Source: Myxococcota bacterium (GTDB lineage Bacteria; Myxococcota_A; UBA9042; PHBI01; JAWLBL01). From it: a stretch of 64,000 bases of DNA. Positions 24,001 through 30,000 of this stretch are shown here, piece after piece; the first letter of the stretch is position 1; the number at the start of each line of letters is the position of its first letter. The stretch lies in NCBI GenBank assembly GCA_041687695.1, contig JAWLBL010000005.1:4382-68381 (forward strand), written 5' to 3'. A program made the position numbers.

Positions 24001-27000
24001 AACTCTCACACTACGTCGTCCGATTCAGACCCGAACTGAACCCTGCTCATACCTCGCCGCGTCCTCTCCGGAGCCGAAGAGAAGCATGAACGCCTCGACC
24101 CTGCTCGACAACATCGACAACGGCCATATGGCGCTGCCGGAGTTCCAGCGCGGCTACGTCTGGAATCGGGTTCAGGTCCGGGCACGCGTGATCTCGGCCT
24201 TCTCCAGAGATGCACATGACAACGGGGCGGCCACGACATGCTAGGTCGAAAATTCAACCCGCTGCGCGCCATCATGAAGATGACATCCTCGCATGAGGAC
24301 GTGTTGACGGAGTTCGTCGTGGCCGCGCTCGAGGCGGACGCCAGCTTCCGGGCGCGTTATGCGGGCCTCGTCTTAGGTGACTACGCCACCGCGCGGGGGT
24401 GGGCGCCTCCTGTGATCGTGGACTGGTGCACCCAGGGCGCGGTCGACGGCTGCGTGGGAACCCCTGACGTGGTCCTCGGACTCGCCGACGGACATCGAAT
24501 CATCGTCGAGCACAAGATCGAAGCAGACGAGACGAGCGCCTTCGTCGACGGCGCCGAGACGCCCAGCGGCCAACTCGACCGCTACCTGCGCTCGAACATC
24601 GACGGCGTCGCCTTCTTCCGGCGCTCGTGGAAGAGCCCTTCGGACGAGGTTCTGGCGCACCCGCTCTATATCCGGCCAGGAGCTCAGCCACACTTTCTCT
24701 GGCGTGACCTCTACCCCTTCCTCGTCCCGGACAACAAGCCGGCGACCCGATGGCTCCGTGAGTACTTCGAGGATGAGGGCGACACGCCACCACACCCCGT
24801 CATCGGGGACCTCATGGACGCCGATCCGGAACGCCAGAAATCGGCACGACAGAACTTCGCCAAGCTCTGGGACGGAACGCGCGGACTGGCCTCGAGCCTC
24901 GGTTGGAAGGTCACGACCGGCTCGATCTGCGAGCTCTACCTATCGGAGAGCAGCCGTGGGAGCGCGACGGTCTATCTGTCGCCGCTCCATCGTAAGGGCG
25001 CGTCGCTGATTATCCGTGTGACTCCGCGCGACCCGCGTCAGGTGGTCGACCTGGCGAAGTCGCTCAAAGGGGTCTTGACCATACCGCATGGACAAGTCGA
25101 GACCACCCAAGCTCGGCGTCAGGATGGACTCGTCGAGGTGGTCGACCTGACGGTCCCGTGGCGTGAGATCCTTTCGAGTCGCTCGGACGCGTTCGAGATG
25201 GACGAGAGTCTGTGCGACTTCGTCCTGCCGCTTCTCCACGAGATCACCTACATCTGCGCTTCCGCACCGGGGAAGGCAGTCACCGAAACGGGATAACGGG
25301 TGGGGTGAAGAGGACCACGGCGAACAACGCGGTAGCGACTGCGATAGAACGCGACATGAGGTCCGAAGGCGGTGTCGTGTGCTTCGACTCCTGCCGCCAG
25401 GCGGAAGGTCTGCCCCACGGCCACAGCCGCCCGAACGTCAACGCCGTCGCCAACTACACCTTCCTGACCAAGGCCACCAACCTCGCCCTCAGCGACCGCG
25501 CCCCCGAGGACTACTTCCCCAAGGTCGAGGCCCGCCTCCCTGGCGGCCTCGCCTCCCAGTGGATTCCAACCGACCCACAACTCTGGAATACCGACAACCA
25601 CCTCGACTTCCTAGAAGCTCGCCGCCAGCTCCTCGCCGAGGCCACCAACCGCTTCCTCGGCGAGGCTGCTGCACGACCCGCTCCGGACCGAGCTGACGCC
25701 CCCCGAGCCCGAACTCGTGCTGCACCATGCCGTCCCCGTCCCGGGTAGCATCGACTCCGAGGACGAGGGGCAGCTCCTTGTCGAAACCAACGCGTGGGTC
25801 GTCCTCGCAGGGCCTGGCCGAGGGACACCTCCTCTACGAGCTGACGGAACTCGACGGCAGCCCCAAGGCCATCCTCGACCTCGCTTGGCCCGATGGCTTG
25901 CAGCCGGGCCTCACCCGCCCAGTTGCCCTCCTCCGCAACGAGGGCGCCGACACACTGAACGCCGCAGTCCAGCACGGGTTCCAGATCTTTACGGACACCG
26001 GCTCCCTCCAACGCCACATCCTTGCCCCCGAGTCCGCCACCACTCGCGGCGAAGCGCGGGTGGCGTGGTTACAGGCGAGCAAGCCACGATGTGAGAAGCC
26101 TGTATTCACGCCTCGCGTGAGCTGGCGAAGTGCAAATCTCGAAGTCATGCCCCTTTGGCATCCTCAGGCTGCAACGCTCAGAACTCCGTTAGGCAGCTTC
26201 TACAAGCATCGATGGCTTGCACCAACTCGCGAATCTTGGAATGCGAATAAGTCTTGTTGGTCAACGAGAAAGCGATCTCTGCTCCACCACGCACTTTGGT
26301 GACCCTTGTTCCCTCAGCTACCGGCTTCAGGGCCTTAACGGCGCGGTCCACCTTCGAGTCGAGGTACTTCTCGAACGTAGATCGCTTGTCGTGCTCCAAG
26401 CGCATGCGTGTAATCGAAACGTTGACTTCAGGGTCGCCCGCGCGCGACGCGGAGAGCGCGAGGCGCAACTCTAGAGGTGGTCCTGGATGTGTCCAGATTC
26501 GACCAAAGTCTGTGTTCTGCAACTCACTGAGGCGGTCTGGAAAAAGCCTGGCCAAGAGTTCCTGCAGTAGCAACGGGTCTCCAACGTCGACGACATCATC
26601 CACAAGCAGCCGTGAGAGCGACGTCAGCGAACGTACGATATCAGGCATGGACGGCCTAGCGCCTTGCTCGCTTCGAGTGCAAGCATAAACAAGCCGGGAG
26701 ACCGCGAGCGGAATTGCACGCCAGCTCTTGTGGACAAGCTGCACGGCTGCTTTAGCAATCGCGTCCTGGAAATTCGGAAATTGCTGCTCTCCCGGATATG
26801 GGTGGCGTTCCATGAGAACAAAGAAGATGAGCATCCCCATCCCAAACGAATCGACAGCGGCGTTTCTGGTCAAGGCGGCGTCCGACCCGGACGACGATTG
26901 TTCCGGCGCAGCATAGCCCTGCATTCGGGCGGAATGAGCAACTGACCGCTCATTTGCGCCACGGTGCCACGAAAGGTCGAAATCGAGAACTACAACCTCG

Positions 27001-30000
27001 AAACTGTCGGCGCCGAAAATTGGGTTCCGCAACATTACGTTCGCCGGCTTGATATCGCGATGTAAGACGACATCTTCCAGTTCGTGAGCAGAAGCCACGA
27101 TAGCCGCAACCCTCGTGAGCACATGAAGTCTTTGTTCGAGAGTGCTGAGGTAACCCTTGGAGAGCGCTTCCTCCAGGGTCAGTCCGGGAACGTGCTCCAT
27201 AAATATCGTTGGCGGAACCTCGTAAGCGTCATGGAAGCGAACCATACCGTCAATATTGTGCTTCGCCAATATTTTCATGGACTTGATGCCACGCCGGAAG
27301 CTTAGCACGTATCTCGGATCGCGCCGAACCTCTTCGAGCATGACTTTGGCGGCCTGAACGCCAGAATCCGGATCAGAAACTCGATACACCTGCCCGAACG
27401 CCCCCTTGCCGATCGGAGCTTCCACGAGCCGCCCAAAGAGCCTGCCCAGAGCCGGGTGGCCAGGTTCGAATAGCCAGGCCTTGTGGGTCGAACGCGGGTA
27501 CTTGCTGAATAGGTCACGAAGAGCGTCTAGCTGTGCTCCCTCCTGTGATGGAGAGTCGCGGACCAGGAAAGCAACAGCCGCGTTCAACTGGCTTCGAATG
27601 TCCTCCTCGTGAAGAGATGCTAGCTGCTCGTCAGGCAGAAGATTTGCCGGATCCAGCAGCCCGCCCTGGAAAGCCGACGGTGGGGCGCCGCTGTCCGGAG
27701 CATACGTAGCGATGTCCTTCAGGAGATCAAGCAGCGCAGTATGATCTGATGTTGTGCGCTGATTGTACTGGACGACACGAAGCCCCCAATCGCGATATTG
27801 CTCCAGCGTCTGGCTGTCTTTCGTGTGAGTGATGATAAACAAGCGAGGCGCGGAGTGTAGCCGTCGCAGAGTCTCGATTGCATGAAATTCGAATGTGACA
27901 TCCAACGGATTAAAACCAACGAGAACTACTACCTTCGTCCGGAGAACGGACGCGATGAAGTCGCGAAGTCCCGTGGAGTTCAGGGTCTGGTCACGCTCCT
28001 CTTTCGTGAACACCCAAGAAGTCTCGTCAGCGAGATCTCCATGTGCCAACAGCAGGAACTCGTCCTGCTTCTGAAGAAAGTAGTTATACTTTGCCGGCTC
28101 CTTGTGTGTAGCGTAGTCAAGACTTCGCCGTCGGATCTGCGCATATGAATCTAGCGGCAACCGGTCGAGATTGTAGGTGATGATGCCATGGACACCGAAC
28201 CGCCAAATCAGGTCATACACCTGATTGGACGGGCAGTTTTCGGTGCTCAAAAGACGGCGAATCGCTTGAACATAGCGAATTCCACCGAGGGAAGTCCGAA
28301 TGCGAGGAAACGCCTGCCAAAGGTCGCTGTAATTCGCCACCGACTTAGCAAGTGCCTCGACTGCCGACTTCTCGTCGTCGGCAAGGGTGAGTGCATCCTG
28401 ACGCACTTGCTTCACCAGCTGGTCCCGTAGCTCGCTCCAAAGTGGAAGTCCAGAGAACTTCGAGACACCTGCACCGGTGAGGAACACAACGTCTTTGGGC
28501 GACTTGGCAATGCGCTGTCGCAAGTCGAGAAAGGCATCTGAGGTTGCGTCGAATGGAACGAAGGTGGGCGCTGGAGGGGGTGTCGGGTCTACAAGATCCA
28601 ATTGGCGGTCTGGTGGTGAAACACCCACGAGACCGCGCTTAACAAGCGTGGCACGCCAGCGGACAAGTGTATTTGCCCGGATGTCGGCTGTCTCTCCACC
28701 GAGGCCTGTCAACTTCTGAATGCGCCTCGTTAGTTCCTCTCGGGTCGGTCCGTCTTTTGCCAGGAGGTCAGGGCACAGCCGCGTAAGCACTTTGGAGTTG
28801 ACAATCGACTCCCGAATATGCAGGCCCTCGGAAACCGAGCCAGGTAGCGTCGCAAGTAGGTCGCGGCCCGCCTGAGTGGGACTATCTGAGCCTTCATCCA
28901 GCCACCCCAGGCACCGAGCGGCATTCTTCACATAATTGATATGCCGGTGCCGAATTCCGGTAAGGTTAACGAGATCATCGCGCGCCACTACTCCGAGGGA
29001 AATCTGGAGCAGTAATGCTCGGATTCTCGTGAGATCTGGAGCCTGTGGGACAAGGTTACTAGCAATGCTCGACATCGGATCACCTCCAGAATTCGCTCAG
29101 GCCAGATGGCCACGACGAAGATGGCTAGAGCGCGACGACAACACAGAGAGTGATGAGAACTGCCATTGAAGCAATCGCCCACATTAGGTACACGGACCAG
29201 CGAACCTATGTGATGATGTGGGCCATCCCTGCGTCGGCACCAAAGATGTTCGACTTGTGGTAATCCAGATAGCGCTTGAGCGGCGCACCTCTTGGTGGCG
29301 CGATGAGGTTGTCGGCCAGATTAGGAGCCCCAAAGTAATAGCTGACGCGGGTGTCACTGGCCATGCTGACGTTGAGGGGGCCGGCGCGGTGGATGCGATA
29401 GCCGCCGTTGACGGTGATGAGGCCCGAGTCGAAGGCGCTGTCGTGGACGGGACAGGCGGCAATGCCGTTGCGGGGATCGAGACGCTCGCGGTCGGTGGAG
29501 ACGGCCCAGGGCTTGATGTGTGACGCGATGATGAGGCCGGAGCCGGGGAGCGAGCGGGGGGCGAAGCCGCAGAAGCCGCAGGCGTGGCCGTAGTTCTGTA
29601 GGACATCGCGGGCGAAGCGATGCTGACCGAGGCGGGCCTTGTGCTCGACCAGGCGGGTGGTCTCGCGGGTCGAGAAGTCGAAGGCCTGGCTGAGGTCGCG
29701 GACGTGCTGTTCTTGCTGGTGAAGGAGCGTCTCGAGTTCCTTGGAGCCGATCTCGTCTTGGCCGAGGAGGGTCAGGTCGGAGTCGAAAGCGCCGAGGAAG
29801 TCGGGCAGGTCATCGGGGCTGATTCCGAGGCTCCAGCCGGCCTTGAGGATGCGAACGTAGAGTTCGGCGTAGAGGCGCTGGTCGACGGAGAGGCGGACGA
29901 AGACCTCGGGCTCGTGTCGGCCGGCGTTGGTGCGCGAGCCGTCGAGGTTGAGCATCTTGTTGGTGAGCGAGCCGGGGGTTCGCTTCAGCAGGCCGGCGAG

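Follow-up and report, generated by a model that had tools for sequence, protein, structure and literature searches.

The gene at positions 26178..29075 of the window (the whole 64,000-nucleotide stretch analysed here, contig C5:4382–68381) raises the question of what a fusion of a SIR2-type domain with a Hanks-type protein kinase does in a defence island, and which of the two enzymes acts as the effector.

Domain organization of the SIR2–kinase protein

According to the ORF list and the translation, the gene lies on the minus strand, starts with ATG, and comprises 965 codons and a stop (stop codon at 26178–26180). All motifs listed in the survey's finding are readable in the 965-aa product, and both domains reported there, SIR2_2 at residues 298–434 (36.3 bits, cutoff 24.5) and Pkinase at residues 553–815 (81.6 bits, cutoff 31.7, E = 7.8e-23), score above their Pfam cutoffs. 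The full-length AF2 model (pLDDT 91.7, pTM 0.81) shows disorder at residues 156–168.

The SIR2 domain, delimited by Pfam, motifs, VIA, and profile comparison with the PDB, occupies residues 176–445 (27741..28550, minus strand). Its motifs are GAGVS (201–205), N302/D304, and H345–G346; G201, G203, H345, and G346 are found in 138 out of 138 aligned family members, N302 and D304 in 137 out of 138. The domain retains every residue required for NAD+ cleavage. By both fold and sequence profile, it groups with the ThsA/KomC/DSR2/Avs5/FAM118B clade of NADases: VIA matched it with SeThsA (Z 25.0, rmsd 2.6, 254 residues aligned), KomC (Z 23.3–23.4), EfAvs5 (Z 21.5), and FAM118B (Z 21.0), Foldseek also returned DSR2 and BcThsA, and the SIR2 profile found SeThsA (3.6e-16), FAM118B (5.2e-15), KomC (4.7e-14), and DSR2 (4.6e-10) in the PDB. 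Canonical deacylase sirtuins matched only the first ~40 profile positions (17–54), at about 2.4e-3. They carry a Cys4 zinc module, which is not readable here, since C281 is the single cysteine in the translated SIR2 region. The earlier claim that no PADLOC model covers the SIR2 half needs correction, as the half scanned alone weakly matches the LmuA (3.2e-8), Dsr1 (1.1e-7), and ThsA (8.7e-5) models.

A helical linker (residues 446–545, 27441..27740, minus strand), assigned from the secondary structure of the model and from conservation, has a family-wide pairwise identity of 28%; R494 is invariant in it, and L497 and W534 are nearly so. It leads to the Hanks-type kinase domain at residues 546–825 (26601..27440, minus strand), defined by Pfam Pkinase, motif counts, and VIA, in which PknB (Z 23.0) and IRAK1 (Z 23.8) are tied. 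The motifs GKGAFG (556–561), HRDIKPAN (672–679), and APE (723–725) are readable in the translation, residues G558, K577, H672, R673, D674, N679, D698, D700, P724, E725, D742, and R807 are invariant in 138 members, and the activation-loop position 711 is Ser or Thr in 133 out of 138 (S711 in the query). Calling the kinase complete was justified for the phosphotransfer residues but overstated beyond them: the position of the α-C Glu is occupied by Gly in all 138 members (G596 in the query, opposite the Glu of FRREAQ of PknB in the HMMER alignment), and DFG is replaced by DFD (698–700), again in 138 out of 138. The domain retains its phosphotransfer residues, yet is not fully canonical, and because of these two replacements it may bind nucleotide without transferring phosphate, or act in an unforeseen way. 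The previously reported PADLOC matches to residues 546–835 were reproduced, now with 36 models at E ≤ 0.01 for the whole protein; the best 25 of the 36 all fall on these residues, among them PD-T4-6 (the best, 1.6e-28), mad6 (2.4e-26), MkoA, and PglW. Of all the domains, the kinase shows the highest conservation, with a pairwise identity of 42% family-wide and 68% in close pairs (34% and 59%, respectively, for SIR2), and purifying selection acts on both enzymes.

The C-terminal domain (residues 826–965, 26181..26600, minus strand) has an α/β fold, defined by a separate domain model (pLDDT 91.3) and VIA, the matches being Spa15 (Z 9.4, 120 residues aligned, rmsd 3.5), DR_1245 (Z 9.4), and, at lower scores, SycN–YscB (Z 8.5) and AmyR/YbjN (Z 7.7). 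The top Foldseek rows belong to the same fold class, only at E of 1.2e-3 or weaker. The domain is therefore modeled, with middling scores (Z 9.4, Foldseek E > 1e-3), as folding like a class-I chaperone of type III secretion systems (T3SS) or YbjN; scans of both Pfam and PADLOC gave no match to it. It is also the most variable part of the protein, with a pairwise identity of 21% family-wide and 48% in close pairs (68% for the kinase). The T3SS-chaperone-like fold is a known binder of extended peptides, and fast evolution combined with such a fold would fit the position that the sensor occupies in DSR2 and Avs5. The corresponding region of these two proteins has a sensor role (for Avs5, as described in the literature). 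In a search with the kinase and C-terminal domains, 116 of the best 120 matches carry SIR2_2, and no other effector domain was found on this module among these 120; since effector swapping is not seen, one line of evidence for a sensor module is missing.

The N-terminal extension, previously given as 175 aa, is indeed present and rare, but the domain itself is limited to residues 1–155 (28611..29075, minus strand); it is all-helical and delimited by the alignments of relatives and language-model features. Exactly five of the best 150 phmmer relatives (P0002, P0043–P0046) align from query residues 1–6 and therefore have the extension in common. Its language-model features are close (0.93) to those of the DUF7226/AAA_assoc_C clusters. 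In the five extended relatives, wHTH-PRTase_assc is matched below the threshold in four (best 1.3e-5, 25.6 bits, cutoff 27) and DUF7226 in two (0.0068), both matches falling wholly inside the extensions, and the PADLOC model PRTase_III-A matches the extension of the query at 0.034. Thus, the extension is probably a winged-helix domain of the DUF7226/wHTH-PRTase-associated type, as judged from sub-threshold matches.

A rare but phylogenetically wide family

When 1.84 billion representatives were searched by phmmer with the full-length query, 372 cluster representatives had E ≤ 1e-30. Of these, the top 150 all have E ≤ 8e-82; most of them are 780–800 aa long and align from their own first residues to the query from residue ~175. 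Both SIR2_2 and Pkinase are present in 60 out of 60 members scanned (drawn from the 138 aligned ones), in agreement with the large family of ~790-aa proteins proposed earlier, which is coherent. The description of this family as widespread is correct with respect to phyla, but not to frequency, as only 88 relatives occur in 185,579 species genomes; the family is rare but phylogenetically wide. No model of PADLOC v2.0.0 spans the architecture, as had been noted, no NCBIfam model reaches its own cutoff, and the database names of the members are generic (“protein kinase,” “SIR2 family protein”). Renewed searching likewise gave no description of the family in the searchable portion of the full-text literature, and it is apparently undescribed.

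Genomic context and mobility

The placement of the gene in a defence island agrees with the survey's finding. Its neighbours are a BrxD-like ATPase gene, McrC with an EVE–AAA_5 McrB-like gene, two HNH genes, a PLD–ResIII–DUF3427 type IV enzyme (mREase_IV, 7.8e-284), and two AbiEi genes. In relatives, the genes directly adjoining are AbiL; Wadjet JetABC with SLATT; an RmrA-like gene; a type II methyltransferase; PDC-S22; and DruA with a Schlafen-like gene. Across the family, however, the defence role remains a candidate, as the PADLOC matches do not exceed the controls: matches at E ≤ 1e-8 within ±3 genes occur in eight out of 25 loci and 12 out of 25 matched controls, and strong ones (E < 1e-50) in five and two out of 25, respectively (p = 0.42). 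About ten of the 25 relatives are flanked by ordinary housekeeping genes.

In nine out of 25 loci, and in none of 25 controls placed at matched positions of the same contigs (p = 0.0016), a gene for a transposase, integrase, recombinase, or relaxase is present at a distance of up to ±3 genes. The GC content is 53–58% over exactly the block of the gene and 63–75% in the flanks, the genome having 70–75%. A search of 60 further genomes from its order or class did not find the gene in any of them; in the tree, the query groups with members from Bacillota, Desulfobacterota, and Nitrospirota, outside the Actinomycetota clade, and sister pairs span phyla. Hence, the gene is horizontally acquired, accessory, and mobile. 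Across 78 loci, no family of neighbouring genes keeps returning at a constant position, and a single copy is present in each of 30 genomes; together with the SIR2 domain from a clade of defence NADases, the foreign origin, and the mobility, this favors the one-gene reading advanced before.

Proposed mechanism and alternative explanations

Taking this into account, the SIR2–kinase protein may be a self-contained one-gene conflict protein, most likely causing anti-phage abortive infection, a candidate function to which we assign an about even chance. Its best reading is that of a candidate NAD-depleting effector gated by the kinase and the C-terminal domain. In an uninfected cell, the kinase/C-terminal module would restrain the NADase. 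The variable chaperone-like domain would bind a protein or peptide of the invader, and in the small subfamily to which this gene belongs the additional winged-helix-like domain may add to sensing. Binding would switch the RD-type kinase, probably via phosphorylation of Ser/Thr 711 or of a part of SIR2 or the linker; the SIR2 domain would then be released, or self-associate as related SIR2 NADases do, and the ensuing NAD+ depletion would leave the infected cell unable to support replication. The gene travels horizontally as a single cassette. The control of SIR2 by the kinase, rather than the reverse, as well as the trigger and oligomerization, we infer by analogy. Counting against this reading are the lack of PADLOC enrichment, the housekeeping flanks of some relatives, the rarity of the family, also among plasmid, phage, and viral sequences, and the two replacements in the kinase.

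An unlikely alternative is that infection is stopped mainly by the kinase, or by both enzymes as two effectors: switched on by a phage product, the kinase would phosphorylate many host or phage proteins, as in the defences by staphylococcal Stk2 and E. coli PD-T4-6, with SIR2 as a parallel effector or an NAD-sensing regulator. The higher conservation of the kinase (42%/68% against 34%/59%), its invariant phosphotransfer residues, and the top defence-library matches (PD-T4-6, MADS mad6, MkoA, PglW) are consistent with that, but the catalytic residues of SIR2 are equally invariant, so that this domain is not a decayed appendage, and the lack of the α-C Glu in all 138 members would not be expected of an effector kinase with high turnover. 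Moreover, in each solved relative of the SIR2 clade returned by our searches, SIR2 is the NADase effector, as judged from entry titles and known mechanisms. It is less probable still that the gene serves a mobile element rather than the host, as a self-restrained toxin for addiction or stabilization, competitor exclusion, or counter-defence that would be carried along by transposons, integrative elements, and prophages. The excess of adjoining mobile genes, including a TrwC relaxase gene next to the relative in locus L083, three matches among 2.9 million viral contigs, all three predicted viral, and disruption of at least three of 30 genomic copies, as expected of a costly gene, would agree with such a role; yet neither the 72,556 plasmid records nor the 50,697 phage genomes gave a match, no conserved antitoxin-like partner is seen, and many copies stand alone, inserted between housekeeping genes. 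This explanation also overlaps with defence, as mobile elements often carry defence genes.

A kinase-coupled NAD-dependent deacylase or ADP-ribosyltransferase regulating host physiology outside any conflict seems very improbable. Hanks kinases and CobB-type sirtuins regulate physiology in actinomycetes, and the host genome contains 38 other Hanks-kinase matches, so kinase signalling is abundant in it; the housekeeping flanks of some relatives and the lack of PADLOC enrichment point the same way. Against it are the lack of a match in the 60 related genomes searched, the foreign GC content and the phylum-crossing tree, the lack of a conserved partner or substrate gene, and a SIR2_2 domain of the NADase clade with one cysteine and no readable zinc module, to which deacylase sirtuins match only over that N-terminal stretch of about 40 residues.

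Comparison with known defence systems

The candidate NAD-depleting, kinase-gated effector shares its Hanks-type kinase domain with Stk2, PD-T4-6, MAD6 of MADS, PglW of BREX, and MkoA of Mokosh, all of which lack a SIR2 domain; the matches cover only residues 546–835, and the NCBIfam MAD6 and PglW models also match, far below their own cutoffs. It differs from these kinases in that Gly replaces the α-C Glu, and DFD the DFG motif. Among the PADLOC models, the SIR2 half best fits Lamassu LmuA with a SIR2 effector (PDLC03856, 3.2e-8, residues 19–283 of the 370 scanned), but Lamassu requires the SMC-like LmuB (and LmuC), and no such neighbour is conserved in the 78 loci.

DSR2 and DSR1 have a comparable layout: each is one large protein that begins with a SIR2 NADase and has its sensor region toward the C-terminus. 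In DSR2, however, the remainder forms a helical repeat sensor to which the phage tail tube binds, as the entry titles also state, and there is no kinase; the PADLOC Dsr1 model covers only ~190 residues of the SIR2 core. The SIR2 domains of KomC (Kongming) and Avs5 (SIR2–STAND) belong to the same clade as the one studied here. KomC is switched by its partner KomB with a nucleotide messenger. In Avs5 the switch is a STAND NTPase, whereas here a protein kinase serves as the nucleotide-binding module and self-association is presumed; NADases of the Avs5/KomC type are described, for Avs5, as switched on by filament assembly and modulated by a nucleotide-binding module.

In both structure and profile, the SIR2 domain most closely matches ThsA (SeThsA, 7uxt; BcThsA, 6lhx/8bto), with which it has in common the GAGxS, N..D, and HG motifs and, by analogy, NAD+ cleavage as the putative output. 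ThsA uses a SLOG (or TM/macro) sensor for the signal made by ThsB and requires the latter as a partner gene; the SIR2–kinase protein, in contrast, has neither a SLOG domain nor a partner, and its SIR2 domain is followed by a Hanks kinase and a chaperone-like domain.

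Domain organization and conservation of the family

The region 26178–29075 on the minus strand is a single uninterrupted ORF of 965 codons; the protein (g01176, hereafter the query, whose residue numbering is used throughout) belongs to a genome of 7.97 Mb in 63 contigs, the window being C5:4382–68381. Every motif named in the survey's finding, that is, GAGVS (residues 201–205), N302/D304, H345, GKGAFG, HRDIKPAN, and APE, is present in the translation, and the reading of the query as a fusion of SIR2_2 and Pkinase is borne out by Pfam, both domains scoring above the cutoff. The SIR2 domain occupies residues 176–445 (Pfam SIR2_2 at 298–434, 36.3 bits vs the cutoff of 24.5), and the kinase domain, residues 546–825 (Pfam Pkinase at 553–815, 81.6 bits vs 31.7). 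Query residues 1–175 and the last 140 residues have no Pfam match.

The proposal that such fusions form a large family also holds. At E ≤ 1e-30, the whole-protein phmmer search against 1.84 billion cluster representatives retrieved 372 proteins. The top 150 all have E ≤ 8e-82, and both domains were found in all members scanned with Pfam (SIR2_2 in 60/60 and Pkinase in 60/60, out of 138 aligned). Most of the best 150 relatives are 780–800 aa long, and their alignments begin at their own N termini, covering the query from position ~175 through 845–960. A word-based whole-protein search retrieved only one true relative, P0002, and otherwise generic kinases. The alignment used here comprises 138 of the best 150 relatives; shorter fragments and a few others were left out. 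Family-wide pairwise identity decreases from the kinase (42%) to the SIR2 domain (34%), the linker (28%), and the C-terminal domain (CTD, residues 826–965; 21%), and the same order is seen in the 27 pairs with at least 50% identity (68, 59, 52, and 48%, respectively). Modelled by AlphaFold2 from the alignment of 138 rows, the protein has pLDDT 91.7 and pTM 0.81, with residues 156–168 forming one disordered linker. The promoter and terminator scan of 25500–30400 yielded nothing above shuffle expectation.

Family members carry generic source names, e.g., “protein kinase domain-containing protein,” “SIR2 family protein,” or “eukaryotic-like serine/threonine-protein kinase,” and no NCBIfam model comes near its own cutoff on the query. 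No description of a SIR2–Hanks kinase fusion was found in the main text of openly accessible full-text papers; in particular, the fusion is absent from the matching passages of PMC13464706, Millman et al. (10.1101/2022.05.11.491447), 10.1101/2025.01.08.631966, PMC11897194, PMC12700824, PMC9503650, and PMC8195603. The same literature yielded no description of a protein kinase as a coupling module of a SIR2 NADase. The architecture is real and well conserved, a variant of the SIR2-effector kind, and apparently undescribed.

SIR2 domain

Residues G201, G203, H345, and G346 are invariant in all 138 aligned members, and N302 and D304 are retained in 137 of them. Following the work on ThsA and DSR2, we take G201, G203, N302, and H345 to be the NAD-binding GxGxS loop and the catalytic Asn and His; the names of mutant PDB entries, “DSR2 (H171A)” and “KomC(H146N),” agree with the assignment of the catalytic His.

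The whole AlphaFold2 model was compared with 48,161 PDB representatives using VIA-align, a comparison that bears on the SIR2 and kinase parts only. For the SIR2 domain, the nearest structure is SeThsA (Z 25.0, rmsd 2.6, 254 aligned residues), followed by KomC (Z 23.3–23.4), EfAvs5 (Z 21.5), and human FAM118B (Z 21.0); DSR2 and BcThsA are among the Foldseek matches. The profile of the SIR2 region built from 41 members finds SeThsA (3.6e-16), FAM118B (5.2e-15), KomC (4.7e-14), BcThsA (2.1e-13), and DSR2 (4.6e-10) in PDB, whereas deacylase sirtuins match it over only ~40 N-terminal residues at ~2.4e-3 (sirtuin-2, 2.4e-3). Both fold and profile place the domain nearer to the solved defence SIR2 NADases than to deacylase sirtuins, and it is assigned, from sequence and model, to the NADase clade of ThsA, DSR, KomC, and Avs5, with the predicted active site conserved.

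According to the survey, no PADLOC model covers the SIR2 half. This is so for the architecture as a whole, which no model in PADLOC-DB v2.0.0 covers, but the SIR2 half alone is matched by the models of LmuA (3.2e-8), Dsr1 (1.1e-7), and ThsA (8.7e-5).

Kinase domain

The hallmarks of Hanks kinases are present, namely, the Gly-rich loop, β3 Lys, HRD Asp, catalytic-loop Asn, DFG Asp, APE, αF Asp, and subdomain XI Arg; G558, K577, H672, R673, D674, N679, D698, D700, P724, E725, D742, and R807 are invariant in 138/138 members. In Hanks kinases, the Glu of the αC-helix pairs with the β3 Lys. In the HMMER alignment to PknB, the Glu of FRREAQ, which we presume to be this αC Glu, stands opposite Gly596, and position 596 is Gly in all 138 members; the DFG motif is DFD, again in all 138. 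Because of the Gly at the αC Glu position and of DFD, the domain is viewed as a divergent, not fully canonical Hanks-fold kinase with putative phosphotransfer activity. It is an RD kinase, and position 711 of the activation loop is Ser or Thr in 133 out of 138 members. Structural matches from VIA-align (PknB, IRAK, RAF, and others) are tied at Z 21–24, and thus no subfamily can be named. Abundant Hanks kinases are typical of large, high-GC developmental bacteria, and the source genome contains 38 further Hanks-kinase matches to the kinase domain of the query.

N-terminal extension and C-terminal domain

The N-terminal extension (residues 1–155) is all-helical, and its restriction to five relatives, claimed in the survey, was reproduced: five of the best 150 share it (P0002 and P0043–P0046). 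Its language-model features resemble DUF7226/AAA_assoc_C (score 0.93). The wHTH-PRTase_assc profile matches inside the extension in four out of five relatives (at best 1.3e-5 and 25.6 bits, below the cutoff of 27), and DUF7226 matches in two out of five along nearly the whole profile (0.0068 and 0.052; 16.7 bits, below the cutoff of 27). The extension of the query itself has no Pfam match at E ≤ 1, and no short stand-alone homologue of residues 1–170 was seen at E ≤ 0.001 among 1233 candidates. These weak sequence signals point to a putative DUF7226/wHTH-PRTase-associated domain.

The CTD is the most variable part of the protein. Modelled separately from 51 sequences, it reaches pLDDT 91.3, and VIA-align relates it, with middling scores, to Spa15 and DR_1245 (Z 9.4, 120–123 of 140 residues aligned at rmsd 3.5–3.6), SycN/YscB (Z 8.5), and AmyR (Z 7.7), more than ten type III secretion system (T3SS) chaperones being among the matches. 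The top Foldseek rows fall into the same fold class, but with E-values of 1.2e-3 or weaker; the atlas search with the CTD gave no usable match, and no sequence signal for a relationship to T3SS chaperones or YbjN was found. A fold like that of T3SS class-I chaperones and YbjN, which is of a peptide-binding type, is plausible from the model, without being a firm assignment.

The kinase and CTD, used alone as a query, retrieve 342 proteins at E ≤ 1e-15. SIR2_2 is present in 116 of the best 120 matches, and the remaining four, P0213 (587 aa), P0217 (556 aa), P0200 (555 aa), and P0048 (592 aa), which span 555–592 aa, have no other domain; thus, the module is not seen with other effectors, that is, no effector swapping occurs among these best 120 matches. 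Two of the four proteins lacking the SIR2_2 annotation are encoded on contigs of 14–26 kb, and the four may represent calls cut short at the N terminus, or split forms whose SIR2 part is a gene of its own.

Distribution and mobility

In the data set of one genome per species (185,579 species), 88 relatives were found and 80 loci retained; the 54 intact copies represent 15 named phyla, so that the family spans at least 15 phyla. The all-against-all comparison of 1,291 ORFs from the 80 loci revealed no neighbour family that recurs at a fixed position, the largest non-family cluster comprising eight loci at scattered positions. Exactly one copy is present in 30/30 genomes searched. In-frame stops occur in four matches, at least three of which are truncated ORFs. 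The low-GC block (53–58%) coincides with the gene alone, the neighbours having 63–75%. The protein is a stand-alone unit. Coupling with the upstream HNH_2 gene (29206–30204) was considered and rejected: that gene differs in GC content and is not conserved beside relatives.

A search of 60 further genomes from this order or class, some of them incomplete, gave no match at E ≤ 1e-10. In the FastTree phylogeny of 55 rows, the query core groups with members from Lachnospiraceae, Desulfospira, Thermodesulfovibrionia, and Motiliproteus (support 100), outside the ten-member clade of Actinomycetota, and sister pairs from different phyla are found, e.g., Chloroflexota with Nitrosomonadales (100) and Oxalobacteraceae with Verrucomicrobiaceae (98). 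Sequenced plasmids, phages, and viral contigs seldom carry the gene: the tblastn search with the SIR2 half gave no match in 72,556 plasmids (E ≤ 1e-10) or 50,697 phages (E ≤ 1e-6), and three of 2.9 million viral contigs match. No direct or inverted repeats flank the insertion site.

Genomic neighbourhood

The defence role proposed in the survey relied on the neighbourhood in this one genome, and the local island is confirmed. The McrB-like gene (9350–11884, minus strand) encodes an N-terminal EVE domain (1.8e-4), a middle part matching the PADLOC candidate PDC-S02 (8.5e-12), and then an AAA_5 motor, and is followed by McrC (8216–9349). Other neighbours in the window are genes for a BrxD-like ATPase, HTH-M78 (RmrA-like) proteins, two HNH proteins, HIT proteins, an MBL-fold protein, and a type IV PLD-helicase-DUF3427 enzyme (7.8e-284). 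Two divergent AbiEi-type antitoxin genes (46599–47189, plus strand, and 47320–47925, minus strand) score 6.3e-68 and 1.8e-68 with PADLOC; no AbiEii toxin was matched among the ORFs scanned.

The region 31400–40400 on the minus strand contains a 255–440-nt segment with the 5′ part of a HIT-family gene in four direct copies of 95–100% identity (31655–31909, 34250–34504, 37216–37470, and 39087–39341), plus a weak fifth copy. Two of the HIT ORFs are complete, with the HLHVHV motif, and two diverge after ~80–125 residues. Between the copies lie differing genes (HNH, M78 peptidase, MBL-fold, TPR, and DUF234/PDC-S27-like), a pattern suggestive of serial insertion of cassettes, or of a hotspot of recombination, at a single HIT gene. 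The DUF234/PDC-S27-like gene (39365–40126, minus strand), directly upstream of one truncated HIT copy, encodes a protein of 253 aa that matches the PADLOC candidate PDC-S27 (1.8e-92) over the last 231 of 484 positions only, and may be a truncated or split copy.

Across the family, the six ORFs nearest to the gene, three per side, at 25 loci (150 ORFs) were compared with six ORFs located ~50–100 kb from it on the same contigs (142 ORFs), using one crude ORF caller for both sets. Any PADLOC match at E ≤ 1e-8 was present within ±3 genes at eight out of 25 gene loci vs 12 out of 25 control loci (p = 0.39), and a strong one (E < 1e-50), at five vs two (p = 0.42); the enrichment of PADLOC matches is not significant. 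Control matches are mostly generic, with ABC ATPases assigned to mad3, methyltransferases to mad2, and IscS to DndA. The strong matches beside the gene are AbiL, PDC-S22, a type II methyltransferase, an RmrA-like gene, and Wadjet JetABC, and those in the controls, SngA and the IscS/DndA false positive. Mobile-element genes identified by Pfam (transposases, integrases, a serine recombinase, a relaxase, and a KilA-N gene) occur at nine out of 25 gene loci vs none of the 25 control loci (p = 0.0016), and ORFs with any Pfam match are less frequent near the gene (71/150 vs 90/142; p = 0.007, our own count). The GC content of the gene flanks is below that of the control sites in most pairs. Other neighbours of conflict type are Fic, DruA with a Schlafen-like gene, SLATT_2, an antitoxin, and Imm26; plain housekeeping flanks are seen at ~10 of the 25 loci. 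In Motiliproteus (locus L065, 9133–18286), the family gene lies between the gene of a SLATT_2 two-TM effector and an apparently complete Wadjet JetA-JetB-JetC.

Members of the family are accessory genes that reside in variable, mobile regions, often beside defence genes. With 25 loci and ±3 genes, a defence neighbourhood is not established statistically, and judging from the local island alone would overstate the family-wide evidence.

Possible mechanism and rival explanations

In DSR2, Avs5, ThsA, and KomC, a C-terminal or partner sensor activates the SIR2 NADase, often by assembly. By analogy with these four systems, the kinase and CTD of the query would form the sensing and switching module, and the SIR2 domain, the effector depleting NAD+; we give this overall reading roughly even chances, and a defence function of the family is plausible. 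Judging by its RD-type catalytic loop and conserved Ser/Thr711, the kinase might be controlled via phosphorylation of the activation loop, and the missing αC Glu suggests that it could be held in, or work from, an unusual state. More tentative is a specific form, in which the Hanks-fold kinase lacking the αC Glu would act as an immune switch of a phosphorylation-gated NADase, coupling recognition of invader peptides by the chaperone-like domain to licensing of a SIR2 domain of the ThsA/FAM118 type. If true, this would be a direct pathway from a protein kinase to NAD+ depletion in one polypeptide, with no counterpart known among described defence systems and with logic recalling kinase-controlled cell-death pathways of eukaryotic innate immunity.

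Other functional roles compete with the reading of a sensing kinase and a NAD+-depleting effector. The kinase itself might be the effector, or act as one together with the SIR2 domain, which we consider unlikely. The gene might instead serve the element carrying it, as a toxin or exclusion gene, and this appears less probable still, while a signalling enzyme unrelated to conflict seems the least probable of all.

If the reading of a kinase-controlled SIR2 effector is confirmed, it would add a compact single-gene system, show a route from phosphorylation to the control of NAD+ depletion, and offer a tractable Hanks kinase that lacks the Lys–Glu salt bridge yet is strongly conserved. Since the family spans at least 15 phyla, the characterization of one member would allow several hundred proteins to be annotated that at present are called “protein kinase” or “SIR2 family protein.”

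Comparison with known systems

Bacterial immunity repeatedly uses SIR2 NADases as its output, and to our knowledge every known family of them has a different sensor, be it SLOG, STAND, Argonaute, HerA, or helical repeats. By their defining features, the query is not Thoeris, DSR1/2, Lamassu, Avs5, or any kinase defence family. The ThsB (TIR) partner of Thoeris has no counterpart in the query family, which lacks a conserved neighbour in 78 loci; the SLOG or macro sensor of ThsA is absent from the query according to Pfam, and the ThsA model of PADLOC matches the SIR2 core only (8.7e-5). Similarly, the PD-T4-6 models (PD-T4-6/Stk2 type) cover only residues 546–835, that is, the generic kinase core, and the NCBIfam models of MAD6 and PglW score 69.9 bits vs the cutoff of 460 and 41.1 vs 990, respectively. 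In its presumed mode of action, the query resembles the single-gene SIR2 systems represented by DSR.
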